Assembly (NCBI GenBank): GCA_963846335.1
Contig: CAWJVS010000016.1
Location: forward strand, 128,746 to 192,745
Source: an uncultured Bacteroidales bacterium
GTDB taxonomy: Bacteria; Bacteroidota; Bacteroidia; Bacteroidales; VadinHA17
Direction of reading: 5' to 3'
DNA length: 64,000 bases
Below, piece after piece: positions 33,984 to 58,973 of the stretch. Position numbers and translations under genes: made by a program. Each line of letters opens with the position of its first letter. Within the stretch, counting starts at the first letter, position 1. The notes under the pieces are model-generated. The model did not search any database. It saw nothing but the letters and a program-made list of their open reading frames with translations, and was not told the origin of the DNA.

Positions 33984-36145
33984 GATAAGTAGTCAGCTTA
34001 TTGTTTAGATTGGAAGTGCTCAGGATAAGCTCCACTGGTCCCGCGACACTGTTATATGCGAAGGAGATGCCTCCCCCGAGCATGAAATTTCCGCCAGTCT
34101 GAGATGAGTTCCGGTCATTGTACACCCCGAAATTGGAAATGAAATGTTGAATAGAATTTTTCCCACATCTTAATGCGGAGGTCGAGGCATGCGTATGCTA
34201 TATTGTCGGCACTTATTTCCATCCGGTTAAGTCCTGCAAACGGAAGATAATTCCCGAAATAATTAGTTTTCTGGAATCCTCCGATATACGACCTGTAAAA
34301 GACAGGAGCCACGGATGCAAGCGTAATCTGTGAGTTGAAGGAAGGCAGAAGGACAACCCTGTCGGAGAGCTCTGCCGCAAATTTTAGATTCAATCCAAGC
34401 ATGGCAAATGGTGAGTGCCCATTATAAGTCCATCCATTGTCGGTAACAAGTTTAATGATCCCGTTCATCGTCCATCCGCTGCGGGGAAAATATGGATTAT
34501 CGAATTGGTCCAGCGTCCCTTTTAAAAAGTAATTAATAAAAAAGTCATCCTTTATTTTGGAGCTGTCTACTGACCCTATAACGGAACCAAAATGAAAATA
34601 CTCTGCCGAACTTCCGAGTGAGATCCTGAGAATATCAGAAACCACCAGTTGCGTTCCGGCCTGTATGCTGGTCAGCTGAACATTCACCTCTGAAACCTTC
34701 TGCCCATCCTGATATCCCCTGAGTTCGTCAGCAATGAAAGAAGCAGCAGTAACAAATCCGGGTTTGGAGCCTCTGTCGAGTGAATACCTTGCTGAAAATA
34801 CCGGCGATGTCGACATTTTAGCATCGAGAGATAAGTTGGATCCGCTTACGCGGTCGCTGTAGAATGTCATATTTATCAGGGCCGCTGCATTCAGATCCGT
34901 ATTGTAATTTACTCCTACATTTAACCGGTTTGTGGAGCTTTCTTTTACCATAATTGTTACCACCTTCTTTTCAGCTCCGGATATTTTGTAATCAACATTC
35001 TGGTAATTTCCTGTTGCATAAATTCTTGCAACCCCTTCTCTTATTTCATGAAGGGTTGTTCTTTTATCCTTCCCAATACCGATCTTCCCGAGTATTGATT
35101 CAATATTGGTTTTGTCGGTCCCCTCAACATCAATCCGCTGCACAAATACAGGAGAGTATATATCAGGCAGTTTATGGGGATTTTTTCTTACCGGGTCCAG
35201 TCCGAGAGAGTCTCTCATCCTCATCAGTTCAGGAAGTACTTTGCGTGCAGCATCTTCTCCGCGCTGCATCAGCACTTTTGCAGCTGCGGTATTAAAACTA
35301 GATGCTGAGTAGCCTGAAATATCTGGTTTTATAAGTATATCAACATCTTCCCGGTTCTTTTTACTTCTTTCGAAGCTCAGTAATAATGTCAGCTGGGAAA
35401 TCATTTCAGGAATCGACTGGATTTTTCCTTTGTCCATTAATTCCTCGCCTATATCTATTCCGATAATTATATCGGCTCCCATTTCACGACAGCGGTCCAC
35501 CGGAAAGTTATTGATTATACCTCCGTCTACCAGCATCCGGTTATCGATCTCGCATGGGGCAAAAACTGCGGGTACAGACATGCTGGCCCTCATAGCCCCT
35601 GGAAGAAAGCCTGTGTCAAGCACTACCTCTTCACCGGTGGCAATGTCTGCCGCTATGCATTTGAAGGGGATAGGGAGATGGGAAAAGTCATTTACATCAT
35701 GGTAACCGAACGACAGATACGAGAAGAGGTCCATCGCTTTCTGGCCGTTAAGGACTCCCTCGGGGATAGAAATTTTCTTGGCTTTGATAGGAAGAGAAAG
35801 GAGATATCTCGATTGTTCCTCCTTGGTGATTGCAGGTATGAATGTTCTTCTTGATTCATTGCTCAGCAGCGCTTCCCAGTTCAGGTCTCCAATTACCCTT
35901 TGCAGTGTTTCAGCATCATATCCTATCGCATAAAATCCACCAACTATACTCCCGATACTGGTCCCTGTAATAAAATCTACCGGTATGCCAGCCTCTTCAA
36001 TGACTTTCAGTGCTCCCACATGGGCAAAACCTTTGGCGCCTCCGCCTGAGAGTACCAGTCCGATCTTCGGACGGTAAATAGTATCCTGGGTATAAGCCTG
36101 AAATGAAAGCGATGCAAATATTACTGCAAGGGATAGAATCTTCAC
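33961..36145 (-). pseudogene. Patatin-like phospholipase fused to an Omp85/surface-antigen beta-barrel, one frameshift near 34110-34120 as assembled
   Basis: GGGAKGFAHVGALKVIEEAG and GTSIGS patatin motifs. After the stop at 34115 another frame continues ...GGNFMLGGGISFAYNSVAGPVELILSTSNLNNKLTTYLTLGFYF*, a typical barrel C-terminus ending at 33961. This overlaps the NUDIX 3-prime end by 23 nt. Confidence 0.8.
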
Positions 36146-36240: not shown

Positions 36241-37425
36241 TTAGATATATTCAAACGTGACTTTCTTGAGCCATTTTTCTTCAAGCAGCCTGGCAATTCT
36301 CTTCACGACTGTTCTTCTTATTTCAAGATCGACCGGCAGGTTAGGATCCTGGTGAGCAATATTAATCCTGGTCCCGATAACGAAGTGGATCTCATCACTT
36401 TCCATAATAAGCCTGACAATTTTGTCGGCAGGTCCTTTCCCGAGTCTTACACTGTTGTTGTATCTTTTCAGCAATTCATTGACCTTCTGAAGAGTAAGAA
36501 TTCCTTCAGTGACCAGATCAATGCCTTCGAGAAAGCTTTCAGGCGGAAGCTCGGGATCTTCGAATATAAGTTCATCCACGATAGTTTTGTCAAGTTCTCT
36601 GGCTACAATATCGGCAGTCGTTCCTCCGCAAAGGATCACCTTGCCCTTGTATCCCAGCACTTTTGAAGCAAGGTCTTTATCCTTATCTTTTTCATACGGG
36701 GGACCTGTGCAGATCAGTAGTTTACGGGGCTCCCTGAAATAAATTATCGCACAACTGATATCATCCCTGGCTTTGTAGCTGTCGTTTTTATGAGCCATGG
36801 TCACGATCTTCCCGGCCAGCATGGTTGCTGAAATAGAAGCCTCGCTGGTCACCAGTGAAGCTGCATATGTTGCTATATTGTCTCTTTCCCATCCGAACGG
36901 GAAGGCTTCACTTCCCATACCGCTTTGCGATACACCATCAGAGCAGAAGATGATACGGTCCTCTTTTTCAGGAAAGAAGGTGCAGGTTTTGAGGACTTTG
37001 CCCGAGTTTTTACCCTTGTCAAGAACCACTTTTTTCCAGGAGGGATCGAAGACAAGATTCCCCCTTAATACAACGGTTGAGGGGTTATCATATTCAAGAA
37101 TGTTCACGCGTCCGCTGCTTTCTATATCAACAATGGTAAAAGTGGAGTAGCTTATCTTTCTCTCGCTGCAAACAGGCAGTGTATTCATGATTATCTCTGC
37201 AATCCGGTCGACCTCTTTATGCTCCCGGGTGAAATTAATTGCCATAGTTGCAGTAAGAGTAGCCAGAATATTGGCTTTTACACCATGACCCATACCGTCC
37301 GACAGAACTGCAATTACCCTGTTTTCTTCCTTGATGGAACGATAAAGGAATACATCGCCGCATATCCGTTCACCATCATGATTCCTCTGCTGGCTGTTAA
37401 CTTCTATGAAAAAATTCCTGTTCAC
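36241..37425 (-). CDS. PP2C/SpoIIE-type protein phosphatase with an unrecognised C-terminal domain of about 190 aa
   Basis: ICGDVFLY, VLSDGMGHGVKANILA and FCSDGVSQSG motifs in residues 1-200. The rest (VILCGGTTADIVARELDK...FVIGTRINIAHQD...) matches nothing I recognise. It starts 3 nt after the sensory hydrogenase stop. Confidence 0.8.
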   Translation of the reverse strand: MNRNFFIEVNSQQRNHDGERICGDVFLYRSIKEENRVIAVLSDGMGHGVKANILATLTATMAINFTREHKEVDRIAEIIMNTLPVCSERKISYSTFTIVDIESSGRVNILEYDNPSTVVLRGNLVFDPSWKKVVLDKGKNSGKVLKTCTFFPEKEDRIIFCSDGVSQSGMGSEAFPFGWERDNIATYAASLVTSEASISATMLAGKIVTMAHKNDSYKARDDISCAIIYFREPRKLLICTGPPYEKDKDKDLASKVLGYKGKVILCGGTTADIVARELDKTIVDELIFEDPELPPESFLEGIDLVTEGILTLQKVNELLKRYNNSVRLGKGPADKIVRLIMESDEIHFVIGTRINIAHQDPNLPVDLEIRRTVVKRIARLLEEKWLKKVTFEYI

Positions 37426-37427
37426 TT

Positions 37428-39332
37428 TTATTTCTTCAGGTTGTTTTTCAGGCTGACTTTTTTCGTTTTGTACGACTCGATTATAGAGTTGAGCATTTGT
37501 TCAGTTTCTGAGGCACCTTCACCGAGAAGAAATCCTATTTGCTGGACCATTTCAAGATTCTTGTCAATTACCTCACTTACCCTGTTGATCACCTCTTCGC
37601 CCTGAACTTCCGGTGAGTAGAGATCGCGGATAATTGCCCCGCACATCTTGTTCTTCTTGATAGGGAAGATAGATATATTCAACATCTTATCCTCAAAATG
37701 AACATCCTTGCTTACCACCGGCTCATCCTCCTTGATAACGAAAGTGAACATGTTATAGACATTGAAAGGTATAAGAGTTTTGATATCTGCTCCGGCCAGT
37801 CCGGGGATAACATCAGAAATGGCTTTCGCGTCTTCCCCGATGATGTTTATAAAGCTTTGATTGGAGTGAAGAATTTTAAGGTAGTTATCCACGATCACAA
37901 CTCCGGTAGGAAGCTTTTCGAGCATATTATTCATCATGTCGGATGTATTCTGGGCTATCTCTTTTTCCCTGCGTGCAAGTTCCTCTGATTCTTTAAGGGC
38001 TTTTTTTGTTTCTGCCAGCTTCCTGTTTGTCTGCCGCAGTGTTTCAATATACTCCTGTTTGTTCCTGAGGTTGAATGTATGGCACATCTCGGGTATGGCC
38101 AGGCCCTTTGCAACTGTTGATGCAAATTCGCGGCAGGAAAGGTAACCGCATGCTCCGCAGTTTATCTCTTCGTCCGGATTTTCTTTTCCCACAATCTTCA
38201 GCACTTCGTTTATTGCCTCGGGCGGAGGTTCAGGAATCCGCTGGTCGTTGGGGGAGAAGGTCCGGGTAAAATCAATTTTTGACCATCTCTCCATGTCCTT
38301 CTGCCATTGTGTTTTATCGAGCTGACCGACTCTTTTTTCGGCGTACTTTCTTACAAGGGCCCTTCTCCTGAATCTTTCATTGTGATGTTCCATCGCTGGT
38401 CCCAGAAGGCAGCCATGGCAGAAAAACAGGTTGAAATGATGCTTGATGGTGTCTATATACTTATCGAAATCATTAACAGCCTCCAGTATATCCTCCTTGC
38501 CTGAAGCAGTAATAACACTGCTCGAGACCATATCCCGTTTTATTCCCCCGGCCTGAATTATTCCTGCAGGCAGAGGATAGAGGGCTCCCCAGTTTCCGTG
38601 GGGAGGATCAAAATCAGACATCTTAACCAGTCGTTCCTGGATCTTCATTTCATCGAACAGCTGCCTTAATTCTATAAAAGTCAGCACCCCGTCGACAAGC
38701 TTTCCCGAATCATAAATCAGAGCTTCATCCTTTGCATCGAGGCATGGACCAATCTGTACGGTCGCTGCTTCGGAGCCATATAACTCTTTTACAACCAATG
38801 CAGTAGCTATCATGGGTGATATCAGTGGCGCCAGATTTGGTACAAGTTCAGGGTGGAATTTTTCTATCAATTTTACTATTGACGGACAATTGGCTGTAAT
38901 GAAGTACTTGCCTTCCGCCTTTGAAAACAGCCTTGCATATGCAGCAGCTACCAGGTCAACCCCAAATGATACTTCATGAACATAATCAAACCCGAGCGAA
39001 CGGATCATCGCTACAAATTTCCTGTAATCTGTAATGTCATCAAACTCTGAAGCTATACTGGGTTCAATCAGGGCGACAGTCTTTCTTCCCGATGAAAGCA
39101 GCTGTTTAACCTGTTCCCTTGAATCGCGGAACTCAATCGCTTTTGGGGTACACGATACAAAACATAATCCGCATCCGATGCATCTGTGAGGAAGGATGAA
39201 AGGATGCGCCTTGTGAGGTTTTACTTCAATTGCATTTACAGGGCAGACACGCACACAGGAATATGAATTCCTGCATTTGTCGTCATTGATATAAAGAACC
39301 GGTTTACTAGCTGTCATAATGATTGCTGTCAT
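37428..39332 (-). CDS. hydS: Sensory [FeFe]-hydrogenase paralogue (HydS-type, group C, phosphatase-linked): ferredoxin domain + H-cluster domain + Cx2Cx4Cx16C motif + PAS
   Basis: H-domain motifs are degenerate relative to TSCCPxW / MPCxxKxxE / MACxxGCxxG: ITANCPSIV, IGPCLDAKDEA, FFCHGCLLGP. The extra motif CGACGYLSCREFASTVAKGLAIPEMC follows. The C-terminal PAS reads LPTGVVIVDNYLKILHSNQSFINIIG.... Confidence 0.8.
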   Translation of the reverse strand: MTAIIMTASKPVLYINDDKCRNSYSCVRVCPVNAIEVKPHKAHPFILPHRCIGCGLCFVSCTPKAIEFRDSREQVKQLLSSGRKTVALIEPSIASEFDDITDYRKFVAMIRSLGFDYVHEVSFGVDLVAAAYARLFSKAEGKYFITANCPSIVKLIEKFHPELVPNLAPLISPMIATALVVKELYGSEAATVQIGPCLDAKDEALIYDSGKLVDGVLTFIELRQLFDEMKIQERLVKMSDFDPPHGNWGALYPLPAGIIQAGGIKRDMVSSSVITASGKEDILEAVNDFDKYIDTIKHHFNLFFCHGCLLGPAMEHHNERFRRRALVRKYAEKRVGQLDKTQWQKDMERWSKIDFTRTFSPNDQRIPEPPPEAINEVLKIVGKENPDEEINCGACGYLSCREFASTVAKGLAIPEMCHTFNLRNKQEYIETLRQTNRKLAETKKALKESEELARREKEIAQNTSDMMNNMLEKLPTGVVIVDNYLKILHSNQSFINIIGEDAKAISDVIPGLAGADIKTLIPFNVYNMFTFVIKEDEPVVSKDVHFEDKMLNISIFPIKKNKMCGAIIRDLYSPEVQGEEVINRVSEVIDKNLEMVQQIGFLLGEGASETEQMLNSIIESYKTKKVSLKNNLKK

Positions 39333-39335
39333 ATT

Positions 39336-39590
39336 TTATATTATTCCGGCAAACTCTTTTTCCAGGATACTCTCAATCTTGGTAATAGTGACATCCTCTA
39401 CAATTACTCCATTTATGTTCAGGTTTGGCCCGTTGCTGCACCTGCCCATACACCTGGCGCCTTTGAATATAACTTTGTCGTCCAGATGGTTCTTTTTCAG
39501 GTAATCCTTTATGAACATAACCACATCCTTGTTCCCCCTTGAAAAACAGGAACTGCCAAGACAAATCTGCATTTCAATTCTCTGAGCCAT
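39336..39590 (-). CDS. Thioredoxin-like [2Fe-2S] ferredoxin (NuoE C-terminal-like)
   Basis: 84-aa ORF with CLGSSC...CMGRCSNGP cysteine pattern. It is the first gene of the ferredoxin-hydS-PP2C operon. Confidence 0.75.
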   Translation of the reverse strand: MAQRIEMQICLGSSCFSRGNKDVVMFIKDYLKKNHLDDKVIFKGARCMGRCSNGPNLNINGVIVEDVTITKIESILEKEFAGII

Positions 39591-39620
39591 CTCTTACTGT
39601 TCATAAATAAACACCAGCAT

Positions 39621-39628
39621 CAAAAGTA
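39621..39628 (-). promoter_or_regulatory. Candidate Bacteroidota -7 box (TACTTTTG on the minus strand) for the ferredoxin-hydS-PP2C operon
   Basis: Plus-strand CAAAAGTA equals TAnnTTTG on the minus strand, 31 nt upstream of the ATG at 39590. I found no clear -33 TTTG. Confidence 0.25.
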
Positions 39629-39813
39629 GTAATTTTTTACAACCCTTCAGTCATCTTCACCAGCCTAAAAATGTATAATCTCTGCCTCCGATAGCTGTGA
39701 GATTTTTAATATCGAATATGTCCTGCAATCTTAAAGGACTATACAAGATGTATAATTAACACATAATAAATAAGATACAGATAAGATCATTACAGATCAA
39801 AATATAATATTTA

Positions 39814-39848
39814 TTGTTAATAAAATAACATTGTTTATTTAATAACAA
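39814..39848. promoter_or_regulatory. Two abutting Rex-box-like palindromes upstream of hydC
   Basis: TTGTTAA-TAAA-ATAACAT (39814..39831) and TTGTTTA-TTTA-ATAACAA (39831..39848), compared with the clostridial/Thermotoga-type Rex consensus TTGTTAA-N4-TTAACAA. They lie just upstream of a TATATTTG -7-like box at 39859..39866 and 50-85 nt upstream of hydC. A rex gene is in the locus. Confidence 0.45.
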
Positions 39849-39897
39849 TAAAATAACTTATATTTGTATTGAAAATTGTTTCCTTTAATTAAACTTT

Positions 39898-40368
39898 ATG
39901 AGTGCTGATCTTGATCTGATTCTGAAAAAATATAAAAGCGGGAAAAGGGAAGAGCTTATTCCGCTTCTTCAGGAGATACAGGAATATCTTGGTTATCTTT
40001 CTGAAGATGCAATTGTAAGGGTAGGGAATTTTCTTGGTCTGAGCACAACGAAGATATATGGCCTGGCCACATTCTATGACAGGTTCAGGTTTATCCCGTC
40101 AGGAAAGATAAGGATCAGCATCTGCAATGGTACATCCTGTTTTCTGAACGGTTCAAAAGCCATCATCGATAAAATAAAAGAGGAGACAGGGATCATTCCG
40201 GGACAGACCACACGAGACGGAAATTTCAGCTATGAAATTGTATCATGTATGGGTGGATGCCATAGTGGGCCAGTAATCAGCGTTAACGGAGAGTACCATA
40301 CTCATATTAAAGCTGAACAGCTGCCGGAGCTGATCAGAAAACTTAAGTACGTTATTGAAAACGACTAA
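39898..40368 (+). CDS. hydC: [FeFe]-hydrogenase NuoE-like [2Fe-2S] subunit
   Basis: NuoE-type sequence with C..GTSC...CMGGCHSGP cysteines. It is the first gene of a tightly packed operon. Confidence 0.85.
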   Translation: MSADLDLILKKYKSGKREELIPLLQEIQEYLGYLSEDAIVRVGNFLGLSTTKIYGLATFYDRFRFIPSGKIRISICNGTSCFLNGSKAIIDKIKEETGIIPGQTTRDGNFSYEIVSCMGGCHSGPVISVNGEYHTHIKAEQLPELIRKLKYVIEND

Positions 40369-40386
40369 AAACTTTCAAAAGACAAG

Positions 40387-42321
40387 ATGAAAGATTTAAA
40401 GACTTTCCTGACAGATAAGGTACTTTTATTTGGATCAGATACACTGCTGCCGGAGACTGAAAAAGTTTTAAGACAGGTGAGACGGGAAAAGCCTGATAAC
40501 CCTGTTATTTATATTTCTTCAGGTACAAGCAGCTTAATTGCCGGATCTGAAAGTACTTATCAGGCAATAGAGGCATATATAAGCGAAAACTCATCTGCCT
40601 CCTCCATGGTACGTGTCGGATGCAATGGTCCCGCAAATTTCGAACCACTTGTCTGTATTCATCTGCCGGGGAAGAATAAACTGTTCTTCAGGAATATAAC
40701 CGAGGAAAAGGTTGAGCCGCTTCTGAACGGAGTTTTCCACAACGATATAAATGAAGATGATCTTGCAGGTCAGACAGGGACCAGGGGATTCGAATACTGG
40801 CCGGGGATACCATTCATGGAAGAGCTGCCATTTTTTGCAAGACAGAAGAGGGTCATACTGTCCAATTGCGGATGTTATGACCCTGAAAGCATTGAAGAAT
40901 ACATTGCAAGGGGAGGGTACCGTGCATATGTTAAAGCAATTCGTAATTACACATTTGAGGAAGTATGCGATATCATTGAGAGGAGCGGACTGAGAGGAAG
41001 AAGCGGGGGAGGTTATCTTACAGGGCTGAAGTGGAAGCATGCCCTGAATACAACTTCCAGTGCCAGGTATCTCATCTGCAATGCAAAGGAGAGTGATCCC
41101 GGAGCTTTTACAGACAGGACAATTCTTGAAAGTGATCCGCACCGGCTTATTGAGGGAATTGCAATTGCATCATACGCTATCGGATCATCAAATGCCATTG
41201 TATTCATAAGGTCTGGAAGTGATCATGCCAGGAAAAAACTCCAGCAGGCAATTGATATGGCAAGAGACTTTGGAATTATCGGGAACAATATTTTCTCAAG
41301 TGGCTACAGCCTGGATATTGTAATCAGAAAAGAACCCGGAGCATTTGTCTGCGGGGAAGAGACGGCTCTTATAAACACACTCGAGGGAAAAAGGGGCATG
41401 CCCCAGCTTAAACCTCCATATCCGACTACGTCAGGACTTTTTGGAAAGCCAACAGTGATCAATAATGTTGAAACCCTGATGAATGTCCCCCTGATAATGC
41501 AGAACGGACCTGAATGGTTCCGTACCCTGGGAACTGAAAATAGTCCGGGTACGAAAGTATTTGCGGTAGCAGGAAAAGGCCGCATGTCTGGTGTTGTTGA
41601 AGTGGAGATGGGAACAACGATAAGAAAAATCCTCGATGAAATTGCTGACGGAATCAGGGAGGGTAAGGAATTCAAGGCCATTCAGCTCGGAGGAGCCTCC
41701 GGGTCTTTCATTACCAGGGAAAACCTTGATATCCCGATTGATTATGAAAGCCTGAAGGAAAAAGGTATCGGGATGGGAGCAGGAGGATTTGTGATTATTG
41801 ATGAGAATACATGCATGGTCGACCTTGTAAGGTATTATATGGAATTCATCCGTAACGAAAGCTGCGGAAAGTGCATTCCATGCCGGGAAGGAACTGGCAG
41901 GATGCTTGAGATACTTGAAAGTGTGATACGAAAACCGCTTAATGAGGAGTCAGGGACAACCCTTGAGCGCTTCAAGGGTGTAATGCAGCTTGAGACAATC
42001 TCATCTGTTATGAAGGATACATCGCTATGCGGTCTCGGACAGACAGCTCCGAATCCTTTTATAAGCGCCCTCCGGAATTTCAGGGATGAATTTGAGGAAC
42101 ACATATTTGACAGGAAGTGCAGGGCAAACATCTGCAGGGGACTCAGATCATTCTCCATCGATGTGGAAAAATGTACCGGATGCACTGCCTGTGCAGCCAA
42201 ATGTCCTGTAAATGCGATTTACGGAACCAGGCTTCAGCCATTTTTCATTGTAGAAGATAAATGCATTGGCTGCGGAATATGTTTTGATATATGTAAGTTC
42301 AGCGCAATAAATGTTAAATAA
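40387..42321 (+). CDS. hydB: [FeFe]-hydrogenase NuoF-like FMN/NAD(H)-binding subunit with C-terminal 2x[4Fe-4S]
   Basis: GLRGRSGGGY, CNAKESDPGAF, ESCGKCIPCREG, and C-terminal CTGCTACAAKCP / CIGCGICFDIC motifs. Confidence 0.85.
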   Translation: MKDLKTFLTDKVLLFGSDTLLPETEKVLRQVRREKPDNPVIYISSGTSSLIAGSESTYQAIEAYISENSSASSMVRVGCNGPANFEPLVCIHLPGKNKLFFRNITEEKVEPLLNGVFHNDINEDDLAGQTGTRGFEYWPGIPFMEELPFFARQKRVILSNCGCYDPESIEEYIARGGYRAYVKAIRNYTFEEVCDIIERSGLRGRSGGGYLTGLKWKHALNTTSSARYLICNAKESDPGAFTDRTILESDPHRLIEGIAIASYAIGSSNAIVFIRSGSDHARKKLQQAIDMARDFGIIGNNIFSSGYSLDIVIRKEPGAFVCGEETALINTLEGKRGMPQLKPPYPTTSGLFGKPTVINNVETLMNVPLIMQNGPEWFRTLGTENSPGTKVFAVAGKGRMSGVVEVEMGTTIRKILDEIADGIREGKEFKAIQLGGASGSFITRENLDIPIDYESLKEKGIGMGAGGFVIIDENTCMVDLVRYYMEFIRNESCGKCIPCREGTGRMLEILESVIRKPLNEESGTTLERFKGVMQLETISSVMKDTSLCGLGQTAPNPFISALRNFRDEFEEHIFDRKCRANICRGLRSFSIDVEKCTGCTACAAKCPVNAIYGTRLQPFFIVEDKCIGCGICFDICKFSAINVK

Positions 42322-42326
42322 GCTAT

Positions 42327-44048
42327 ATGCTCTTTACGATACAGGTAAATAATAAAAAGATAAAGGCAGAGAAGGGAGAAACGATCCTTTCGGCATTAAA
42401 CCGGAATGGGATTATTATTCCAACCCTGTGCAGGATGAAGGAGTTCACTCCGACCGGTGCATGCCGTATGTGTGTTGTTGAGGTTGAAGGTCGTGAAAGA
42501 CTTGTAACTGCCTGCTCCCAGCCGGTAGAGGAGTGGATGAAAATAAAGACCCATTCACCCAGGGTTATACAGGCCAGGAAGACAATAGTTGAGCTCCTGC
42601 TGTCAAATCATCCCGATGATTGCCTCTATTGCGACAGGAATCTTAATTGTGAACTTCAGCGTCTTTCAGAAGAGCTCAATATCAGGGAACGCCGCATACG
42701 GGGAAGAAAAATCAAACCACGTCTCGACCAGTCGAGTCCTGCCATAGTAAGGGAACTTTCAAAATGCATCCTTTGCGGAAGGTGTGTCAGGGTATGTGAG
42801 GAGGTAATTACCGCAACGACACTTGATTTTATCAACAAGGGAAGAGCAACACATGTGGGGCCGGCGATGGACAGGGATTTCAACTTTTCAAGCTGCGTAC
42901 ATTGCGGGCAATGCGTACTCGTATGTCCGACAGGAGCCCTTCATGAAAAACACAATATAACTGAGGTACAGGAATACCTCCATAAGCCGGATATCATTAA
43001 GGTTATTCAGTATTCTCCGATGGTTACTGCAGGTATTGCTGAAGAGCTGGGAATGAGGTATACGAGGGAGTTTGACAGGATACTGAATTCGGTGCTGAGA
43101 AGAATTGGCTTTGATAAGGTATTTACCACAGGAACAGGAACCGATCTCTGTATAACTGAGATCACCGGGCAGCTCTCTGCAAGGCTTGAACAAAAGTCAG
43201 ATACCCCGCTCTATATTTCAGCATGTCCTGCCTGGGTTAAATATGTTGAACAATTCATCCCTTCGCTTATTCCGCAGCTCTCCACTGTAAAATCTCCTCA
43301 GCAGATCACCGGGGTGCTTGTGAAAACTCTGGTTGCAGATCAGGCAGGAGCAAAACCAGAGCAGATCTACTCGGTTTCTGTGACACCTTGCATGGCTATG
43401 AAATTTGAAGCCAGGCGTGATGGTATGATGCGCAAGGGAATAAGCGACGTTGATTCGGTACTGACAGTGCGGGAGCTGGCAAGGCTGATACGATTGTATG
43501 GAATAGATATTACAAATGCCGAACATGAACCGGCTGATGAACCACTGGCTGTGAGGAGTTCCTCTGCTGTGCTTGCTGAAGTCTCCGGGGGAATGGCTGA
43601 AGGTGTCTTAAGATTATATTATTACCTGAAGCTCAGAAAAGAGGCTGATAAACAGTATTTTAAAAAAATGCGCTCAGCTGGTTCATTCCGGGAGGCATCA
43701 CTTGTGGTCGGGGATATTGAGGTAAAAGCAGCAATAGTCGATGGTCTTACAGGGCTTGAGAAATTGAAAAATGCCCTCGCCTCCGGGAAAAAATACGACC
43801 TTGTCGAAGTTATGACTTGCCCCGGAGGATGTGTACATGGTGCCGGATTGTCATTCAGTGCTTCAAAGGATGAAATAAAGAACAGGGCGAAGCTTGTTTA
43901 CCAGATAGATGAAACTGAAGCCATCAGCCTTCCATGCAAATCTCCTGCACTTCTGAACCTGTATGACAATCTTATAAAGGCAAACCCTGAGATAGCCGAC
44001 AAGAATATTTTCTTTACGCATTTTGAGAAAAGAAATGTACTTTTATGA
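42327..44048 (+). CDS. hydA: [FeFe]-hydrogenase large subunit (NuoG-like N-terminus + H-cluster domain) with non-canonical L1 motif
   Basis: N-terminal 2Fe-2S and 4Fe-4S cysteine motifs (CRMCVVEV, HPDDCLYC, CILCGRCVRVC, CVHCGQCVLVCP). H-domain motifs are YISACPAWV (canonical TSCCPxW), TPCMAMKFEA and EVMTCPGGCVHGAG. Confidence 0.85.
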   Translation: MLFTIQVNNKKIKAEKGETILSALNRNGIIIPTLCRMKEFTPTGACRMCVVEVEGRERLVTACSQPVEEWMKIKTHSPRVIQARKTIVELLLSNHPDDCLYCDRNLNCELQRLSEELNIRERRIRGRKIKPRLDQSSPAIVRELSKCILCGRCVRVCEEVITATTLDFINKGRATHVGPAMDRDFNFSSCVHCGQCVLVCPTGALHEKHNITEVQEYLHKPDIIKVIQYSPMVTAGIAEELGMRYTREFDRILNSVLRRIGFDKVFTTGTGTDLCITEITGQLSARLEQKSDTPLYISACPAWVKYVEQFIPSLIPQLSTVKSPQQITGVLVKTLVADQAGAKPEQIYSVSVTPCMAMKFEARRDGMMRKGISDVDSVLTVRELARLIRLYGIDITNAEHEPADEPLAVRSSSAVLAEVSGGMAEGVLRLYYYLKLRKEADKQYFKKMRSAGSFREASLVVGDIEVKAAIVDGLTGLEKLKNALASGKKYDLVEVMTCPGGCVHGAGLSFSASKDEIKNRAKLVYQIDETEAISLPCKSPALLNLYDNLIKANPEIADKNIFFTHFEKRNVLL

Positions 44049-44057
44049 TCAGATAAT

Positions 44058-46020
44058 ATGCTTGTTTACACGATAAAGGAACTATGCCGCACTTGTTACA
44101 CGTGCGTACGGGAATGTCCGGCCAGGGCGATTCGTATTGTTGGAGGACAGGCTGAGGTTATTGACGAAAGGTGTATTGCATGCGGCAACTGTACAAAGGT
44201 ATGCAGCCAGGGAGCAAAGGTATTCCTGAATACAACCGACAGGGTTGCAAAAGCTTCTCGAAAAGGAACCGAAAGTGGCTGCGATTGTTGCTCCAAGCTT
44301 CCCGGCTGAATTTTCTGAACTTCCTGATCACACTGTGCTGGTAGGAATGATAAAAGCCCTTGGATTTGAATATGTTGCTGAAGTTTCATTTGGAGCTGAC
44401 CTTGTGGCTGACAGATATAAGAAACTAGTTTCTGAAAATAAAAATTTCTATATCACCTCTGATTGTCCGTCCATTGTAAATTATGTGAAGTTCTATCATC
44501 CCGGACTTGTTGATAACCTCGCGCCGATTGTTTCTCCAATGGTGGCAATGAGCAGGGTAATGCGCGAAAAATACGGAAAAGAGACGCACATCGTATTTAT
44601 CGGTCCATGCATTGCCAAGAAGGCTGAGAGCATGGAAATTGATGAGGCAATAACTTATACTGAACTGAGGGAAATGCTTTCCGAAAGGGGGATTGAGCCT
44701 GAGAATATCACCAAAGTTGATTTTGATCCGCCCGTAGGGGGAAGGGGAGCTATCTTCCCTGTTGCAAGGGGATTGCTTCAGACAGCCAGGATAAGTGATA
44801 ACGCAATAACAGGCGACATCATAGCAGCGGAGGGACGGATAGATTTCCAGGGAGCACTGAAAGAATTTGAAGCTGGATTGATTAAAAATCAGCATATGGA
44901 ATTGTTGTGCTGCGAAGGGTGTATAATGGGACCCGGATTGTCGAAAAACGGCAAGCAATATAACCGGCGATCGCTTGTAAGCTCATATGCACTCAGCAAG
45001 AAGGAATACATCGATTCTGAGTTATGGCATAAGATGTTTGATGAATTTGAAGATCTTGATCTGAGCATCCATTTCAGGCCTGACGATCACCGTATTGAAG
45101 AGCTCGATGAAAAAGAGGTGAATGAAGTGCTGGTGAAGATGGGAAAAAAAACAAAGAAAGATCAGCTCGATTGTGGTGCCTGCGGTTATGAGAGCTGTAT
45201 TGAACATGCCATAGCAATAAAGAAGGGGCTGGCCGAAGTGGAGATGTGCCTGCCCTATACTATCGAAAAACTGCATAAGTCGGTTAAGGATCTTGCTCTG
45301 ACTAATGAAAAGCTGTCTTCAATGAAACAGGCGTTGAAACAATCTGAAAAACTTGCTCATATGGGGCAGCTTTCTGCCGGTATAGCCCATGAACTCAATA
45401 ATCCCCTTGGAGTTGTGATAATGTACAGTAATATACTTCTCGAGGAATCCAAACCCGGAGAGCCATTCAGCGAAGATCTGAAGCTGATAGTCGAGCAGGC
45501 GGCAAGGTGCAAGAAGATTGTTGGCGGACTGCTCAATTTTGCCCGGAAAAACCAGGTTAATCATCAGCATGTCAGCATCAAGGAACTTGTAAATCACAGT
45601 CTTGAGAGCCTTATAATTCCTGAAAAGATTAAGATAAACATAACCGATCACTGCACCAACCCTGAGGCCATGCTTGACACCGAGCAGATGATGCAGGTTC
45701 TTACAAACCTTATCAAGAATGCATTCGACGCGATACCTGATGAAGGAATTGTGGATATCGGACTGGAGGATACCCTCAGCGATGTTATTGTAACTATAAG
45801 AGATTCAGGTACAGGAATTAAGGAGGAGGACCGTGCGAAAATATTTGAGCCTTTCTTCACTACCAAGAGCATCGGTCATGGCACAGGACTGGGACTGGCA
45901 ACAGCCTATGGAATTGTTAAGATGCACAAGGGCCAGATCACGGCTGAGTCAAATAACGATCCGGCCAAAGGACCTACGGGTACCTGTTTTAAGATTGTCC
46001 TGCCACGGAGAAAAGAGTAG
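44058..46020 (+). pseudogene. Sensory [FeFe]-hydrogenase paralogue fused to a HisKA/HATPase histidine kinase (group C, kinase-linked), one frameshift near 44240 as assembled
   Basis: N-terminal ferredoxin motif CRTCYTCVRECP / CIACGNCTKVC. H-domain ITSDCPSIV, IGPCIAKKAES, LCCEGCIMGP. Cx2Cx4Cx16C motif CGACGYESCIEHAIAIKKGLAEVEMC. Then the H-box SAGIAHELNNPL and N, G1, G2 boxes (NLIKNAFDA, DSGTGI, GTGLGL). ORFs 44058..44309 and 44245..46020 join at ...NTTDRV/QKLLEKEPKVAAIVAPSF. Confidence 0.8.
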
Positions 46021-46123
46021 GAAGCAGGCAGTATGTAGTAAGTAGTAAGCAGTTTGCAATGGGCAGGGATTCTGGTTCCCATCCTGGGAGGGGCTAGGGG
46101 TGGGTTCTTGTGGATAAGAACCA

Positions 46124-46141
46124 ATGTTAATAAAATAACAA
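46124..46141. promoter_or_regulatory. Rex-box-like palindrome upstream of the receiver gene
   Basis: ATGTTAA-TAAA-ATAACAA. Its central 16-mer TGTTAATAAAATAACA is identical to 39815..39830. It lies 60 nt upstream of the ATG at 46201. Confidence 0.4.
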
Positions 46142-46200
46142 TAGTTATATTTATCATATCAACTGTTTGATTTAAAGAATTTTTAGAAATTTGCGTAAAG

Positions 46201-46596
46201 ATGAAGAAGAGTGATGTAACGATACTGGTGGCGGATGATGATCCCGATTATCTCTTTCAGACAGTTTTCAGCCTTGAAAAGGCAGGTTACAGGACAATGG
46301 CAGTAGAAAGTCAGGCTGAGGCAGAATCGGTGATAGCAAAATACAAGCCGAGCCTGGCAATTTTTGATCTGATGATGGAGAATGACGACAGCGGATTTAT
46401 ACTCTGTTACAAAATGAAAAGAAAGTATCCTGATGTACCGGTTATTCTTGCAACAGCTGTATCCCATGAGACAGGTATGTCGTTCAGTATTGATTCCGAG
46501 CATGAAAGGGAATGGATCAGGGCTGACAGGTATCTTGAAAAAGGGATCCGCCCTGAACAGCTTGACCAGGAAGTAATGAAACTATTAAAACTGTAA
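46201..46596 (+). CDS. Stand-alone response-regulator receiver protein
   Basis: ILVADDD...IFDLMM (phospho-acceptor Asp)...VPVILATA...EKG. No output domain in 131 aa. Confidence 0.85.
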   Translation: MKKSDVTILVADDDPDYLFQTVFSLEKAGYRTMAVESQAEAESVIAKYKPSLAIFDLMMENDDSGFILCYKMKRKYPDVPVILATAVSHETGMSFSIDSEHEREWIRADRYLEKGIRPEQLDQEVMKLLKL

Positions 46597-46597
46597 A

Positions 46598-47735
46598 ATG
46601 GCTGTTTTAAAAGTACTTGTAATTGATGATGAGCCCGGGATTCGTTCAGGAGTCTCCAGGATACTTAACAATTTTCATGTCACTTATCCTTTCATGGACG
46701 AAGATTATACTTTTGAGGTCACAGAGGCAGGAACGGGAGAGGATGGCATCGCCATACTTGAACGCGAGATGCATGACATCCTGTTGCTGGATAATAAACT
46801 GCCAGGCATTCAGGGTGTTGATGTGCTTGAATATATCAGGAAAAGAAACTACGACATAGTGGTGGCCATGATAACCTCATACGCTTCACTCGATGTTGCC
46901 ATAAGAGCCACTCGCGATGGTGCGATTGATTTCATACCAAAACCATTTACTCCGCAGGAACTTAAATCGAGTATTGAAAATATAACCAAACAACAGTATC
47001 TCAAAAGGATAACACATAAGATGAAGCAGGAGGGGAAAAAGATCAGATATCAGTTCCTCTCGGTTCTCTCCCATGAACTTAAAGCACCTCTGAATGCACT
47101 GGAAGGCTACCTGAGGATGATGCAGGAAAAACAGGCTGGCGACAGGATCGAGGATTATGCCACACCTATTGAGAGGTCTCTTCAGAGGATACAGGGGATG
47201 CGCAGCCTTATAATGGACCTGCTCGATTTCACTAAAATTCGTCTTGAGAGAAAGGAAGAAAAAATCCAGGAGGTCAGTCTGGCAGAAGTTGCCTCCGAGG
47301 CTATCATAACTGTTCAGCCTTATGCCATCCAGATGGATGTGACCATAAATCTTGACGTAAGGTCAGATGTATCAATTTTGGCTGATCCGGATGATATGGA
47401 GATCGTTTTCAATAACCTTATCTCCAATGCCGTTAAGTATAATAAAGTTGGAGGGAAAGCAGAGATCACCATCGATTCATCTGATATTGAAGCGATTCTT
47501 ATCTTTTCAGATACCGGAATAGGCATTACCCGGAATGACACCGAAAACCTTTTTACCGAGTTTGTCAGGATCAAGAACGAAAAGACAAGAAATATATCGG
47601 GTAGCGGACTAGGATCTGTCTATTGTAAAGAAAGTTGTGGAACTTTATCATGGGACTATTAATGTGGAAAGTACACCGGATGTCGGGACAGTTTTTACAA
47701 TAAGATTACCAAAAAAGCAACCTGCAATAACCTGA
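46598..47735 (+). pseudogene. Hybrid receiver-histidine kinase (REC + HisKA + HATPase_c), one frameshift near 47615 as assembled
   Basis: VLVIDDEPGIR...LLLDNKLPG receiver, H-box LSVLSHELKAPLN, N-box NLISNAVKYN. After GSGLG the frame shifts to LSIVKKVVELYHGTINVESTPDVGTVFTIRLPKKQPAIT*, with the stop at 47733..47735. Confidence 0.8.
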
Positions 47736-47806
47736 AAATAATTTATAACCGGGCCCCGAAATGTCGGGATTGGTGAAATCATGCTATCAACATTAACTAT
47801 TTAAAA

Positions 47807-48430
47807 ATGAAACTACCGGGAAAAACAGTTGAAAGGCTCAGCGAATACAGAAGGACACTTCTGGAATGCCTGAACGAAAAAAGAAACTTTATTTTTTCAC
47901 ATGATCTTGCTGCCCGTCTTCACATTACTGCTGTTCAGGTAAGGCGTGACCTTATGCTGATCGGCTATTCGAGTGTTCTCAGAAAAGGTTATGATGTGAG
48001 AGAACTTATTGATACAATTGGAAAAATTATTGACTCTGAAGAGAGCGTAAATGTTGCCGTTATTGGTATCGGTAACCTTGGAAGGGCAGTTGCCGGATAT
48101 TTTAAGGGGAAAAGGTCGAAACTTAACCTGGTGGCTTCATTTGACACTGATCCGCAGAAGGTTAATAAAGTTATTTCAGGAGTGAAATGCTATCCTTACA
48201 GTGAGATAGAAAGAATAATCAGGGAACTGGATATCAGGATAGCAATTCTGACTGTGCCGCCCGATTATGCAGTGGAGATAGCTGAAGAAGCAGTTCGTTT
48301 CGGCATAAAAGGGATCCTCAATTTTACAACAATTCCATTGAATGTACCCTCAGGTGTCTATCTTGAAGAGTATGATATGATCACCTCCATTGAGAAAGTG
48401 GCATATTTTGTTAAAGAGAACAAGATTTAG
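47807..48430 (+). CDS. rex: Redox-sensing transcriptional repressor Rex
   Basis: TVERLSEYRRTLLECL..., winged-helix SHDLAARLHITAVQVRRDLMLIGY, and Rossmann VAVIGIGNLGRAV. Confidence 0.9.
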   Translation: MKLPGKTVERLSEYRRTLLECLNEKRNFIFSHDLAARLHITAVQVRRDLMLIGYSSVLRKGYDVRELIDTIGKIIDSEESVNVAVIGIGNLGRAVAGYFKGKRSKLNLVASFDTDPQKVNKVISGVKCYPYSEIERIIRELDIRIAILTVPPDYAVEIAEEAVRFGIKGILNFTTIPLNVPSGVYLEEYDMITSIEKVAYFVKENKI

Positions 48431-48445: not shown

Positions 48446-49371
48446 ATGAATATTTTCCGAAGCTTTGAAGAAGCAAAGAATATCAGGAATCCTGTAGTAA
48501 CCACCGGTTCATTCGACGGGGTTCATATCGGTCATAAGACCATTCTTGACCGCCTTAAGATCCTGGCTGAGAAGTACAGCGGAGAGTCAGTGCTGATCAC
48601 TTTTGATCCTCATCCAAGAAAAGTACTTTATCCGGAGTCAGCCGGCAAAGATCTTAAACTAATTAATTCTCAGGAGGAAAAGCTTAAGCTTCTTGAAAAA
48701 GCAGGTTTGAACAATGTCATTATAATGGAATTCACCAGGGAATTTTCAAAGATTACAAGTGAAGAGTTTGTGCAGGGATATCCTGCATGGAATACTTCAT
48801 GCCAGAGTGGTTGTAGCCGGTTTCAACCATCATTTTGGTTTCAACAAGGAGGGAGATTACAAACAGCTCTGGGGATGGCAGGAGAAATATAATTTTGAGG
48901 CGGAAGAGATACCTGAACAGGAGGTTCAGCATGAAACTGTCAGTTCAACAAAAATCCGCAAGGCAATAAGTGAGGGATATATTCAGAGGGCAAATGCCTA
49001 CCTTGATCATTATTATATTATTATGGGTAACTGCTGAAAAGTATCATTGTTTCTGATAGTGAAACTCTTCCTGGTTTCCTGAAGAATTTCTACTGACGGA
49101 AGAATGTAAGCTTCTTCCGTCACCAGGAATTTATGCAGTTTCAGTGGAAGCAGGGTCCGGCTATTCAAAAGGCATGGTTGTAATCAACCATGGAGCTGAC
49201 AATCATTTCTGATGTCCTCATCAGATATTTGATAACCTGAACCTTCCACCTGACCAGAAAATTTGCAGCTTTTTTCATAAGAAAATCCATGGAGCAGTCA
49301 ATCTTTCCGACAGTAATTCAATCCGGAAGATCGACCAGGCAAAAGAGGAGATACTTGATCTTATTTACTAG
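48446..49371 (+). pseudogene. ribF: Bifunctional riboflavin kinase/FMN adenylyltransferase, at least three frameshifts as assembled; kinase half is poorly conserved
   Basis: N-terminus VVTTGSFDGVHIGHKTIL...VLITFDPHPRKV. Second frame VVAGFNHHFGFNKEGDY...VSSTKIRKAISEGYIQRANAYLDHYYIIMG. Downstream fragments KLLPSPGIYAVSVEAGSGYSKGMVV and HQIFDN...FFHKKIHGAVNLSDSNSIRKIDQAKEEILDLIY*. Confidence 0.65.
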
Positions 49372-49613: not shown

Positions 49614-51038
49614 ATGAAGTTTTCTCCTGAAAAACTAAGTATTCCTGATCAACGAATGAAGCCATTCATTGATCCTGAAGAGATATGGAATCTTATTAAC
49701 AATACCAAACCGGATAAACATAGAGTCAGGGATGTAATTGCAAAATCACTTGAAAAGCAAAGACTTACACTTGAAGAAACTGCGGTCCTTGTAAATTCAG
49801 TCGGAACCGACCTGGCTGACGAGATAAAAGACGGGGCCCGCGAGCTGAAACAGAAAGTTTATGGAAACCGGATAGTTCTTTTTGCTCCTCTCTATGTTGG
49901 AAACAGGTGTACCAATAATTGCAAATATTGCGGTTTCAGGGCATCAAATGCCGATGCAATAAGAAAAACTCTTGATGATAATGAAATTATCAGGGAGGTT
50001 GAAGCTCTGGAGGATAACGGACAGAAGAGGCTTATCCTTGTCTATGGTGAGCATCCCGACTATTCACCTGAATATATTGCTCATACGGTAAAGCTTGTTT
50101 ACGGGGTAAAGAAGGGACATGGTGAGATACGAAGAGTAAATATAAATGCTGCTCCGCTTGATATTGAAGGTTTCAGAAAAGTCGGAGAATCAGGTATAGG
50201 TACTTACCAGATATTTCAGGAGACTTATCATCCTGAAGCATATAAATGGTATCATCTTGGAGGTAAAAAGAGAGATTATGAATGGCGCCTTACATCACTC
50301 GACAGGGCACAGGAGGCCGGTATTGATGATGTTGGTATCGGAGCTCTGTTCGGCCTTTACGACTGGAGGTTTGAGGTGCTCGGACTGGTCCGTCATACTA
50401 ACCATCTTGAGGCCTGCTATAATGTTGGTCCGCATACTATTTCCTTTCCGCGCATAAAGGATGCACTGAGCCTGAACCTTGACAAGAAATATGAGACCAG
50501 TGATGACGATTTTAAAAAGCTGGTTGCCATACTAAGACTTGCTGTTCCATATACCGGATTGATACTTACTGCACGGGAGGCTCCTGAAGTCAGAAGGGAA
50601 GTGCTTCAGTACGGTGTATCACAGATTGATGGAGGTACAAAACTTGAGCTGGGTTCATATTCAGATTCGAGGAATGAGGAACAGAACCTGAACCGGGAAC
50701 AGTTTAAAATAAATGATGCCAGATCCCTTGCAGAAGTTATTGATGAACTGCTTACAAATGATTACCTTCCTTCATTCTGCACATCATGTTACAGAATGGG
50801 GCGTACAGGTGAACATTTTATGGAATTTTCAGTGCCCGGGTTTATAAAGAGGTTCTGTACTCCCAATGCAATACTCACTCTTTCAGAATATATATGTGAT
50901 TATGCCCAGGGAGAAACAGTTGAGAAAGGCTGGAAAGTAATTGAAAAAAATATTGAAAAACTGGAATCATCAGTAGCAGCCGGCACCAGGGAGAAAATTG
51001 ACAGAATCAGGGCAGGGGAGAGGGATCTGTATTTTTAA
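49614..51038 (+). CDS. hydG: [FeFe]-hydrogenase H-cluster radical SAM maturase HydG (tyrosine lyase)
   Basis: CTNNCKYCGF radical SAM motif and the C-terminal auxiliary-cluster motif CTSCYRMGRTGEHFMEFSVPGFIKRFC (Cx2Cx22C). 474 aa. Confidence 0.9.
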   Translation: MKFSPEKLSIPDQRMKPFIDPEEIWNLINNTKPDKHRVRDVIAKSLEKQRLTLEETAVLVNSVGTDLADEIKDGARELKQKVYGNRIVLFAPLYVGNRCTNNCKYCGFRASNADAIRKTLDDNEIIREVEALEDNGQKRLILVYGEHPDYSPEYIAHTVKLVYGVKKGHGEIRRVNINAAPLDIEGFRKVGESGIGTYQIFQETYHPEAYKWYHLGGKKRDYEWRLTSLDRAQEAGIDDVGIGALFGLYDWRFEVLGLVRHTNHLEACYNVGPHTISFPRIKDALSLNLDKKYETSDDDFKKLVAILRLAVPYTGLILTAREAPEVRREVLQYGVSQIDGGTKLELGSYSDSRNEEQNLNREQFKINDARSLAEVIDELLTNDYLPSFCTSCYRMGRTGEHFMEFSVPGFIKRFCTPNAILTLSEYICDYAQGETVEKGWKVIEKNIEKLESSVAAGTREKIDRIRAGERDLYF

Positions 51039-53437: not shown

Positions 53438-53463
53438 GATTCCTGTCAGTTGGTTTAAAATGT

Positions 53464-53497
53464 ATAAAAAAAAGCTTACCACCTGTTTGGTAAGCCT
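53464..53497 (-). terminator. Intrinsic terminator/attenuator hairpin 27 nt upstream of the lyase start codon
   Basis: Minus strand reads (G)GCTTACC-AAACAGGT-GGTAAGC followed by TTTTTTTT. Confidence 0.6.
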
Positions 53498-58919: not shown

Positions 58920-58973
58920 TTGATTTATTACTTTTACATTTTTTTTCAAACACATTGCATACTGATCAATAAA

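Follow-up and report, generated by a model that had tools for sequence, protein, structure and literature searches.

The stretch of DNA analysed here, called the window throughout, comprises 64,000 nucleotides of an uncultured Bacteroidales bacterium of the VadinHA17 lineage (assembly GCA_963846335.1, contig CAWJVS010000016.1, positions 128,746 to 192,745) and carries a locus built around a trimeric [FeFe]-hydrogenase operon, hydC-hydB-hydA. This operon is followed by a gene for a hydrogenase H-cluster domain (H-domain) fused to a histidine kinase, and then by genes for a stand-alone receiver, a receiver-kinase hybrid, the repressor Rex and the flavin enzyme RibF. Across an AT-rich spacer of 307 bp lies a divergent unit encoding a [2Fe-2S] ferredoxin, a second, HydS-like H-domain protein and a PP2C-type phosphatase. 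Open reading frames (ORFs) were listed over the whole window and compared with Pfam and NCBIfam profiles at curated cut-offs. An earlier note on this DNA, made from the sequence alone, had placed hydC-hydB-hydA at 39898-44048, the divergent genes beyond a spacer of about 300 bp, and the receiver, hybrid kinase and rex genes downstream, all of which were recovered, with a frameshift in the hybrid kinase gene; the locus also runs past the point where that note stopped, to take in ribF, hydG and a TM1266-like gene. The existence of the locus is confirmed, its conservation is strong, and the earlier domain reading is largely right. On balance, we consider it probable that these genes form a conserved Bacteroidales regulon for a HydABC-type hydrogenase, in which three layers of control act in parallel and no single phosphoprotein is shared among them.

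Relatives of the locus were collected by a narrow pattern scan, which gave 248 species-level genomes; the best 80, all metagenome-assembled genomes of Bacteroidales/Bacteroidota, were compared. Synteny was counted in the 54 loci from species-level Bacteroidales genomes that had enough flanking DNA. The genes hydC, hydB and hydA and those of the kinase-type sensor, receiver, hybrid kinase, Rex and RibF were each present in 54/54, ribF always following rex, and this linkage may couple the supply of flavin mononucleotide (FMN) to the flavoprotein HydB. The divergent unit accompanied the eight genes in 50 of the 54 loci, hydG lay within 10 kb in 34 and the TM1266-like gene was found in 33, so that the co-conservation of neighbours on which the earlier note had staked its reading does hold. 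Six deeper lineages (L082, L084, L086, L087, L088 and L091), with HydA proteins 37-44% identical to that of the window, all retained the eight-gene cassette; the PP2C unit was present in L088 and L091 and absent in the other four. Because it is missing in 4/54 close and 4/6 deep relatives that keep the kinase cassette, the PP2C unit is an accessory add-on and the kinase cassette is the conserved core. Two canonical HydABC loci, taken as controls, had no sensors and no rex nearby. The cassette is common in Bacteroidales of anoxic soil, peat and sediment, and a narrow search returned more than 7,800 database homologues. In the window, successive genes from hydC to the kinase-type sensor are separated by 18, 5 and 9 nt, and those of the divergent unit by 3 and 2 nt. 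The features of the locus are listed in the table.

Table. Features of the hydrogenase locus, with positions in the window.
Feature	Position	Strand	Basis or remark
PP2C/SpoIIE-family Ser/Thr phosphatase, 394 aa	36241-37425	-	Pfam SpoIIE 46.2 bits (cut-off 25)
HydS-like H-domain protein (2x[4Fe-4S], H-domain, Cx2Cx4Cx16C, long helix, PAS-like domain)	37428-39332	-	Fe_hyd_lg_C 127 bits; FeS PF04060 33.6 bits
Thioredoxin-like [2Fe-2S] ferredoxin, 84 aa, first in divergent unit	39336-39590	-	Pfam 2Fe-2S_thioredx 46.4 bits
Two tandem Rex-operator-like palindromes, TTGTTAATAAAATAACAT and TTGTTTATTTAATAACAA	39814-39848		50-84 nt upstream of hydC
hydC, NuoE-like [2Fe-2S] subunit	39898-40368	+	Pfam 2Fe-2S_thioredx 152.6 bits; NuoE model NF005722 137.7, slightly under cut-off 141
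hydB, NuoF-like FMN/NADH subunit, C-terminal 2x[4Fe-4S]	40387-42321	+	Pfam/NCBIfam scans; alignment to 7t2r_B
hydA, M3-type H-cluster subunit with non-canonical pocket	42327-44048	+	
H-domain sensor-histidine kinase fusion (2x[4Fe-4S], H-domain, Cx2Cx4Cx16C, helix, HisKA, HATPase)	44058-46020	+	Frameshifted
Third Rex-like box, ATGTTAATAAAATAACAA	46124-46141		60-77 nt upstream of receiver gene
Stand-alone receiver (REC) without output domain	46201-46596	+	Pfam Response_reg 53.7 bits
Receiver-HisKA-HATPase hybrid kinase	46598-47735 (frameshift-corrected end)	+	
rex, NADH/NAD+-sensing repressor (predicted)	47807-48430	+	NF003995 193.8 bits (cut-off 126)
ribF, FAD synthetase/riboflavin kinase	48446-49370 (end approximate)	+	At least 3 lesions
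hydG, H-cluster maturase	49614-51038	+	TIGR03955 486.6 bits (cut-off 312)
TM1266-like putative iron-only hydrogenase system regulator	51354-51878	+	PF21699 30 bits (cut-off 27)

The first of the three layers would be transcriptional control by Rex, a known type of control that strong comparative evidence here extends to Bacteroidota. The rex product matches the Pfam families Put_DNA-bind_N and CoA_binding, and its GIGNLG motif is invariant in 72/72 sequences; a score above the curated threshold, a winged-helix N-terminus, a Rossmann GxGxxG and a cognate TTGTnAAnnnnTTnACAA operator make it a Rex protein, with a predicted response to NADH. Two palindromes abut in the spacer, TTGTTAATAAAATAACAT at 39814-39831 and TTGTTTATTTAATAACAA at 39831-39848, and match both the Clostridia-type Rex operator (PMC5886521) and the general consensus (PMC6391272); they are followed at 39859-39866 by a Bacteroidetes-type -7 box, TATATTTG, assigned by reading against the TAnnTTTG consensus. 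In every one of the 66 relatives whose sequence reaches far enough upstream of hydC, predicted operators of the form TTGTTAAnnnnTTAACAA occur there, near -83 and -66, and their density in this stretch (5.14/kb) is some 160-fold above that elsewhere in the same loci (0.031/kb), which leaves the link to Rex firmer than the earlier note had it. The L005 relative has, 82 nt upstream of hydC, a classical TTGTGAAAATATTCACAA in which both half-sites have changed symmetrically with respect to the TTGTTAA...TTAACAA type. All three Rex-like matches in the window fall in this locus, against 0.55 expected. The third box precedes a -7-like TATATTTA and is a probable internal Rex-controlled promoter for the receiver, hybrid kinase, rex and ribF genes; a site at about -78 of the receiver gene is kept in only 28/80 relatives at two mismatches or fewer. 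In the relatives, the regions preceding rex, hydG and the sensor gene yielded no Rex boxes; in C. bescii, Rex represses Hyd, hydG and rex, by electrophoretic mobility shift assay (PMC6391272). Generic sigma-70 promoter and terminator scans, which are unsuited to Bacteroidota promoters, performed at chance (30 matches vs 31.9 expected and 16 vs 13.9 expected).

Under the proposed scheme, Rex would occupy the two tandem operators, which overlap the hydC promoter or lie just upstream of it, and in some species also a third one before the receiver genes. A high NADH/NAD+ ratio would release it and switch on hydCBA together with the kinase sensor, receiver, receiver-kinase, rex and ribF, such that Rex would be autoregulated and the supply of FMN co-expressed with the flavoprotein subunit.

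The second and third layers would each depend on one of the two H-domain sensors, which are paralogues with 35-39% identity. Residues of their H-domains were read by aligning both proteins with T. kivui HydA1 and with canonical representatives. Loss of the cysteines that ligate the [4Fe-4S]H subcluster had been named beforehand as grounds for abandoning a sensory reading; both proteins retain all four, with a one-residue deletion between the last two (C-x-G-C). The H-cluster motifs are degenerate in both, as had been noted from the sequence: C299 is replaced by Asn in the PAS-type sensor and by Asp in the kinase-type sensor, M353 by Gly in both, and M497 by Phe and Leu, respectively. Motifs indicate two N-terminal [4Fe-4S] clusters in each, and the Cx2Cx4Cx16C motif found in each is conserved across about 60-80 relatives. 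Likewise conserved are ITANCPS, IGPCLDAKDE and FFCHGC in the PAS-type sensor and I(S/T)SDCPS, IGPC(V/I)AKKAE and LCCEGCIMGP in the kinase-type sensor, the latter set persisting even where the HydA of a lineage shares no more than about 41-44% identity with that of the window. The kinase-type sensor combines HisKA (49.6 bits) and HATPase_c (80.6 bits) in one polypeptide, with the H-box His present in 81/81 sequences.

In the M2e and M2f subclasses, Cx2Cx4Cx16C is the motif of the C-terminal cluster (PMC8163306), and group C [FeFe]-hydrogenases are characterised by two N-terminal [4Fe-4S] clusters, Cx2Cx4Cx16C at the C-terminus and the absence of C299 and M353 (PMC8163306, PMC10055695). By sequence, both proteins fit the putative sensory group C, and the one encoded at 37428-39332 fits the M2f/HydS type. 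None of the outcomes that the earlier note had listed as refuting its reading was observed. Subtypes C1 and C3 of the HydDB scheme are defined as histidine kinase-linked and phosphatase-linked, both putative (PMC5037454), as the earlier note correctly stated. The PAS-type sensor is encoded with a Ser/Thr phosphatase, the PP2C gene lying 2 nt downstream and the pair occurring in 50/54 relatives, as expected of C3; the kinase-type sensor has its H-domain linked to a histidine kinase, as expected of C1. Since HydDB labels some kinase-domain sensors C3 (PMC11406978), the subtype label of the fusion is uncertain.

The PAS domain that had been read at the C-terminus of the HydS-like protein stands only in part, as a probable domain below every curated threshold. 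Five PAS Pfam models fall on one and the same stretch, all under their cut-offs (best PAS_8, E=0.0068), and the NCBIfam MASE3_PAS_HK region also matches it (E=4.4e-6). An AlphaFold2 model of this C-terminus, of low confidence (predicted local distance difference test score, pLDDT, 47.7), has a PAS-like order of strands and helices, and a Foldseek search with this low-confidence model returned mostly PAS, LOV and PYP structures as top matches (best E=2e-3). No PAS domain is listed in the precomputed Pfam annotation of 120 homologues, and a sequence search of the PDB with the HydS C-terminus gave nothing relevant.

The kinase-type sensor, translated directly after hydA, would bind an H-cluster and report H2 or a redox state set by H2, the signal travelling from the C-terminal [4Fe-4S] site along a continuous helix to HisKA. 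Phosphate would then pass to the stand-alone receiver, to the receiver-kinase hybrid or to both, and the final output would be encoded outside the locus. We infer the binding of the cofactor, the response to H2, the direction of regulation and the phosphotransfer partners; a regulatory role has been proposed for HydS and HfsB (PMC5707799, PMC10055695). Of 80 relatives, 75-80 retain the receiver residues D12, D13, D56, T85 and K114, and the acceptor Asp and His of the hybrid kinase are conserved too.

An unlikely reading, which nonetheless deserves attention, is that the kinase-fused protein is a physical fourth subunit of HydABC, similar to the 'BfuT' proposed in Hydrogenedentota, and that what it reports is the electron flux through the complex or its redox poise, not free H2. 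In the window only 9 nt separate its gene from hydA, in L084 and L087 the two genes overlap, and every cassette examined contains it; its N-terminal 2x[4Fe-4S] domain would suit electron exchange, and BfuABCT and BfuTABC clusters have been described (PMC11406978). Adjacency of genes, however, is no proof of a complex, and the solved HydABC complexes matched by our structure search have no such subunit.

The kinase-type sensor had been described as following hydA at once and ending in a complete kinase; its domains and its start bear this out, but it is not one ORF. The 1963 nt of 44058-46020 fall into two frames, an N-terminal Fer4 piece (44058-44309) and the remainder (44245-46020), and the shift is explained by an extra A in the run GCAAAAGC near 44249; the protein is intact at 653 aa in all database relatives. 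The hybrid kinase has an extra base near 47616, with the ORF as sequenced stopping at 47662 and the corrected stop at 47735, and ribF carries at least three lesions (48774-49205), above the local average; their counterparts in L001 are intact at 377 aa and 306 aa. Could the signalling branch be decaying in this genome, these frameshifts being real mutations? Three consecutive damaged genes, one of them with several lesions, would suit such decay, and the database gene call for this genome is a truncated product of 591 aa (P0026). Yet at least eight genes in the window are split by single-base insertions or deletions, and these breaks extend throughout it to genes of unrelated function, among them those for a GntP permease, an ADP-forming acetyl-CoA synthetase and an aminotransferase (7666-8998; 54916-57018; 58920-60114); the synthetase gene is in three pieces here and intact in L001, at 685 aa. 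In addition, two of the three insertions lie in homopolymer runs, the protein sequence flanking each shift is fully conserved, and all relatives are intact. With breaks scattered over the entire window and no such damage in any relative, errors of consensus or assembly are probably the cause, and we hold decay of the branch to be very doubtful. Targeted pseudogenisation was judged less likely than assembly error on the same grounds.

In the clade of the window, the ferredoxin-HydS-PP2C unit would add the third layer, a Ser/Thr-phosphatase branch that is the counterpart of HfsB-HfsC and of Ruminococcus albus HydS. The four cysteines of the ferredoxin (Cx4C...Cx3C) can be read in the sequence, and the metal-site residues of the phosphatase (DGMGHG, SDG and DDIS) are invariant in 27 homologues. 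The C-terminal 165 aa or so of the phosphatase (36241-36735) match no Pfam family, are very highly conserved and are predicted to alternate between strand and helix, in a protein that is 88-96% identical overall; this region may be a partner-binding or output part. An AlphaFold2 model of the phosphatase (mean pLDDT 39.5) was unusable for identifying it.

HisKA kinases pass phosphate from His to Asp on receivers, and SpoIIE-type PP2C enzymes hydrolyse phospho-Ser/Thr. This distinction bears on the interpretation offered in the earlier note, a push-pull switch in which the kinase-linked and phosphatase-linked sensors set the phosphorylation of one common target, integrated with Rex. Both modules do flank the same operon in 50/54 close relatives and also in L088 and L091, and the two sensors share a homologous cluster-to-helix linker. 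On the other hand, neither a Ser/Thr kinase nor a STAS protein nor any substrate shared by both branches is encoded in the conserved block, and the PP2C unit is dispensable, as its absence from 4/54 close relatives and from L082, L084, L086 and L087 attests. With different chemistries and separable modules the push-pull switch fails, and we now regard it as highly improbable.

The enzyme that the sensors were presumed to control does adjoin them as a trimeric operon, but it does not have a standard catalytic HydA. The HydA protein matches Fer2_4, NADH-G_4Fe-4S_3, Fer4 and Fe_hyd_lg_C (225 bits) in Pfam, and its closest solved structure is T. kivui HydA1 (8a6t, E=5e-129). Of the features expected of a group A3 (HydABC-type) hydrogenase, it has the N-terminal cluster domains of an M3 enzyme, the four H-cluster cysteines (aligned as C300, C355, C499 and C503) and NuoE-like and NuoF-like subunits encoded directly upstream. 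The canonical L1 and L2 motifs, the full proton pathway (C299/E279/E282/S319/R286) and family scores above the curated cut-offs are lacking. L1 reads ISACPAW, where T. kivui HydA1 has TSCCPSW and the canonical form is TSCCPxW, the core thus being SACP, not SCCP; a further stretch reads DLCITEITGQLSARL where T. kivui has DMTIVEETAELVERL; L2 reads VTPCMAMKFE vs canonical MPCxxKxxE. The changes amount to C299->A, E279->I, E282->Q and M353->T, with S319, R286 and M497 kept. The protein scores 582.8 against a cut-off of 765 for group A6 (NF040763) and 352.7 against 405.95 for group A (TIGR02512), and NCBI names its homologues only 'C-terminal domain-containing protein'. Its 50%-identity cluster is isolated, the cluster's own representative being 76% identical and the next-nearest about 40-49%; a neighbour-joining ordering, without support values and therefore indicative, groups it with some 27 representatives of similar degeneracy and separates these from the canonical majority.

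None of the 80 close relatives has Cys at position 299, and across cassette lineages this position holds A, V, S, L, N or F, with C in one lineage. That lineage, P0125, keeps C299, M353 and M497 together with the full two-sensor locus, which is why the idea that the cassette strictly goes with loss of Cys299 was rejected. HydB is altered as well: its N-terminal [2Fe-2S] domain (40387-40960) keeps one of four cysteines (SSGTSS...GCNGPANF vs CRGTGC...GCHGMCEM in 7t2r_B), and the PF01257 match present in the HydB of a canonical control (P0159) is absent from cassette HydBs. Its C-terminal 2x[4Fe-4S], FMN site and N3-type cluster are present. Many otherwise canonical HydA representatives (P0123, P0141, P0145 and others), as well as the solved A. 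woodii HydA1 (7q4v), have an L1 of TSCSPGW, in which a Ser is aligned with the cluster-ligating Cys300.

Across deep Bacteroidales divergence, conservation is higher in the regulators than in the subunits of the enzyme. Between the window and L082/L084, identities are 56-57% for the kinase sensor, 54% for the receiver, 53-57% for the hybrid and 56-65% for Rex, vs 35-37% for HydC, 45-50% for HydB and 41-44% for HydA. These figures bear on another reading, in which the trimer is of low turnover or biased towards uptake and the eight-gene block is an integrated H2/NADH sensing device, not a means of regulating bulk H2 evolution. The missing C299, E279, E282 and M353 of HydA, the free variation at position 299, the lost cysteines of HydB, the scores under the group A cut-offs and the difference between regulators (53-65%) and enzyme subunits (35-50%) all point that way, as do the low activity and minimal transcription of the B. 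thetaiotaomicron A3 subunit (PMC12578642), whose membership of this clade is unverified. Against it, TmHydS, the Thermotoga maritima HydS, still turns over with Ala at position 299 (PMC10055695), so that HydA need not be dead, and alternative proton pathways are known (PMC10407848). Moreover, hydG and the TM1266-like gene are co-located, as with working enzymes, the full NuoE/NuoF machinery would be costly for a mere sensor, and the P0125 lineage has kept the canonical residues. We think such a sensing block improbable. We hold as rather improbable the more specific idea that the trimer works together with the co-translated H-domain kinase as a single device, which compares H2, NADH and ferredoxin poise and turns the result into a phosphorylation signal, the HydABC-like complex not being a conventional H2-evolving enzyme. 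Whatever its role, treating this HydA as a standard bifurcating H2 producer is unsafe.

Returning to the regulon with three parallel layers, five considerations weigh against it. We know of no experiment on any Bacteroidota homologue. In the assembly, frameshifts interrupt both the kinase sensor and the hybrid kinase; should these lesions be real, this strain would have a dead branch. Among the genes of the locus there is none for a DNA-binding response regulator. HydA, as read from its sequence, is without the canonical proton pathway, and what is regulated may be something other than a normal high-flux hydrogenase. Finally, H2 does not reduce the C-terminal cluster of TamHydS, the group D model (PMC13104023), which makes the transduction step uncertain.

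Each part of the locus is of a known kind and the combination is unstudied. The nearest precedents for the PAS-type sensor are HydS of R. albus, encoded with HydABC (Zheng et al. 2014, via PMC5707799 and PMC10055695), and HydS of T. maritima. These are PAS-bearing H-domain proteins that have two [4Fe-4S] clusters at the N-terminus and a Cx2Cx4Cx16C cluster at the C-terminus, have lost C299 and M353, are encoded beside a trimeric HydABC and have been proposed to signal through Ser/Thr phosphorylation enzymes. TmHydS has A, G and S at positions 299, 353 and 497 (PMC8163306, PMC10055695), and thus shares M353->Gly with the window sensors. The window differs in its divergent, sub-threshold PAS domain, in having Asn rather than Ala at position 299, in the absence of a Ser/Thr kinase beside the phosphatase and in its second, kinase-fused sensor. 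The association of HydS with HydABC and Rex is that of the R. albus paradigm. The hfsABCD operon of Thermoanaerobacterium saccharolyticum has the same succession of sensor and PP2C (HfsB and HfsC) after a gene for a small Fe-S protein, and the Rex site predicted for it at -78, TTGTTAATAAATTAACTA (PMC5886521), is nearly the same as the window operator. By contrast, the window unit lacks an HfsD-type ferredoxin-linked catalytic hydrogenase, lies divergently to a HydABC operon and belongs to Bacteroidota, not Firmicutes; it works like the HfsB-HfsC part and is not an hfs operon.

For the kinase cassette, the closest parallels come from annotations. Elusimicrobia of lineage V have a histidine kinase-fused group C gene beside a trimeric group A hydrogenase, with Rex nearby, described as 'related to' those of Ignavibacterium album and Caldithrix abyssi (bioRxiv 10.1101/765248); in Hydrogenedentota, PAS-type and kinase-type 'BfuT' genes flank BfuABC in BfuABCT/BfuTABC clusters (PMC11406978); and the cultured Petrimonas mucosa, also of the Bacteroidales, has a C1 gene near hndABCD (PMC7768429). 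With their trimeric hydrogenase, H-domain-histidine kinase fusion and Rex, these loci probably represent the same cassette, and in other clusters PAS-type sensors lie upstream; the reports consist of annotations only. In the literature searched, there was no account of both sensor types around one operon, of two receivers, of conserved Rex operators in Bacteroidota, of the ribF linkage or of a degenerate HydA. Among [NiFe] enzymes, the HoxBC-HoxJ-HoxA system of Ralstonia eutropha (PMC5707799) is alike in that a low-activity hydrogenase module gates a histidine kinase controlling hydrogenase expression; it differs in its unrelated metal site and proteins, its separate sensor and kinase polypeptides and its known DNA-binding response regulator, a type of protein that the window locus does not encode. 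Lastly, TamHydS of Thermoanaerobacter mathranii (group D, M2e) combines loss of C299 with M353->Ser/Thr, as in the window HydA, and is encoded beside a trimeric hydrogenase (PMC8163306). It is an M2e protein with a C-terminal cluster, whereas the window HydA is an M3 complex subunit that keeps M497.

The value of the locus lies mainly in offering a tractable system for how [FeFe] 'sensory' hydrogenases signal, a question on which biochemistry exists only for TmHydS and TamHydS. The kinase-fused sensor provides a direct read-out, namely autophosphorylation with and without H2, and its likely partner receivers are encoded beside it. Rex has been studied mostly in Gram-positive bacteria, and the conserved operators constitute a testable link between the NADH/NAD+ ratio and H2 metabolism in Bacteroidota. 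Metagenomic surveys count such HydA genes as 'group A3 bifurcating hydrogenases' and H2 producers, and may overstate their function.

A few observations concern the neighbouring genes. A NUDIX gene lies directly beside the PP2C gene in most relatives; in the window, a patatin/Omp85 gene (34115-36145, - strand) separates the two, an arrangement otherwise seen only in L002, L003 and L005. Beyond the TM1266-like gene, a radical SAM gene at 53684-54784 is a possible hydE. The two are adjacent in L001; in the window they are separated by a gene for a beta-eliminating lyase of the tryptophanase/tyrosine phenol-lyase family (51971-53482, - strand, Pfam 169.9 bits). Tyrosine is the substrate of HydG, which makes the placement of this lyase gene near hydG a curious one.

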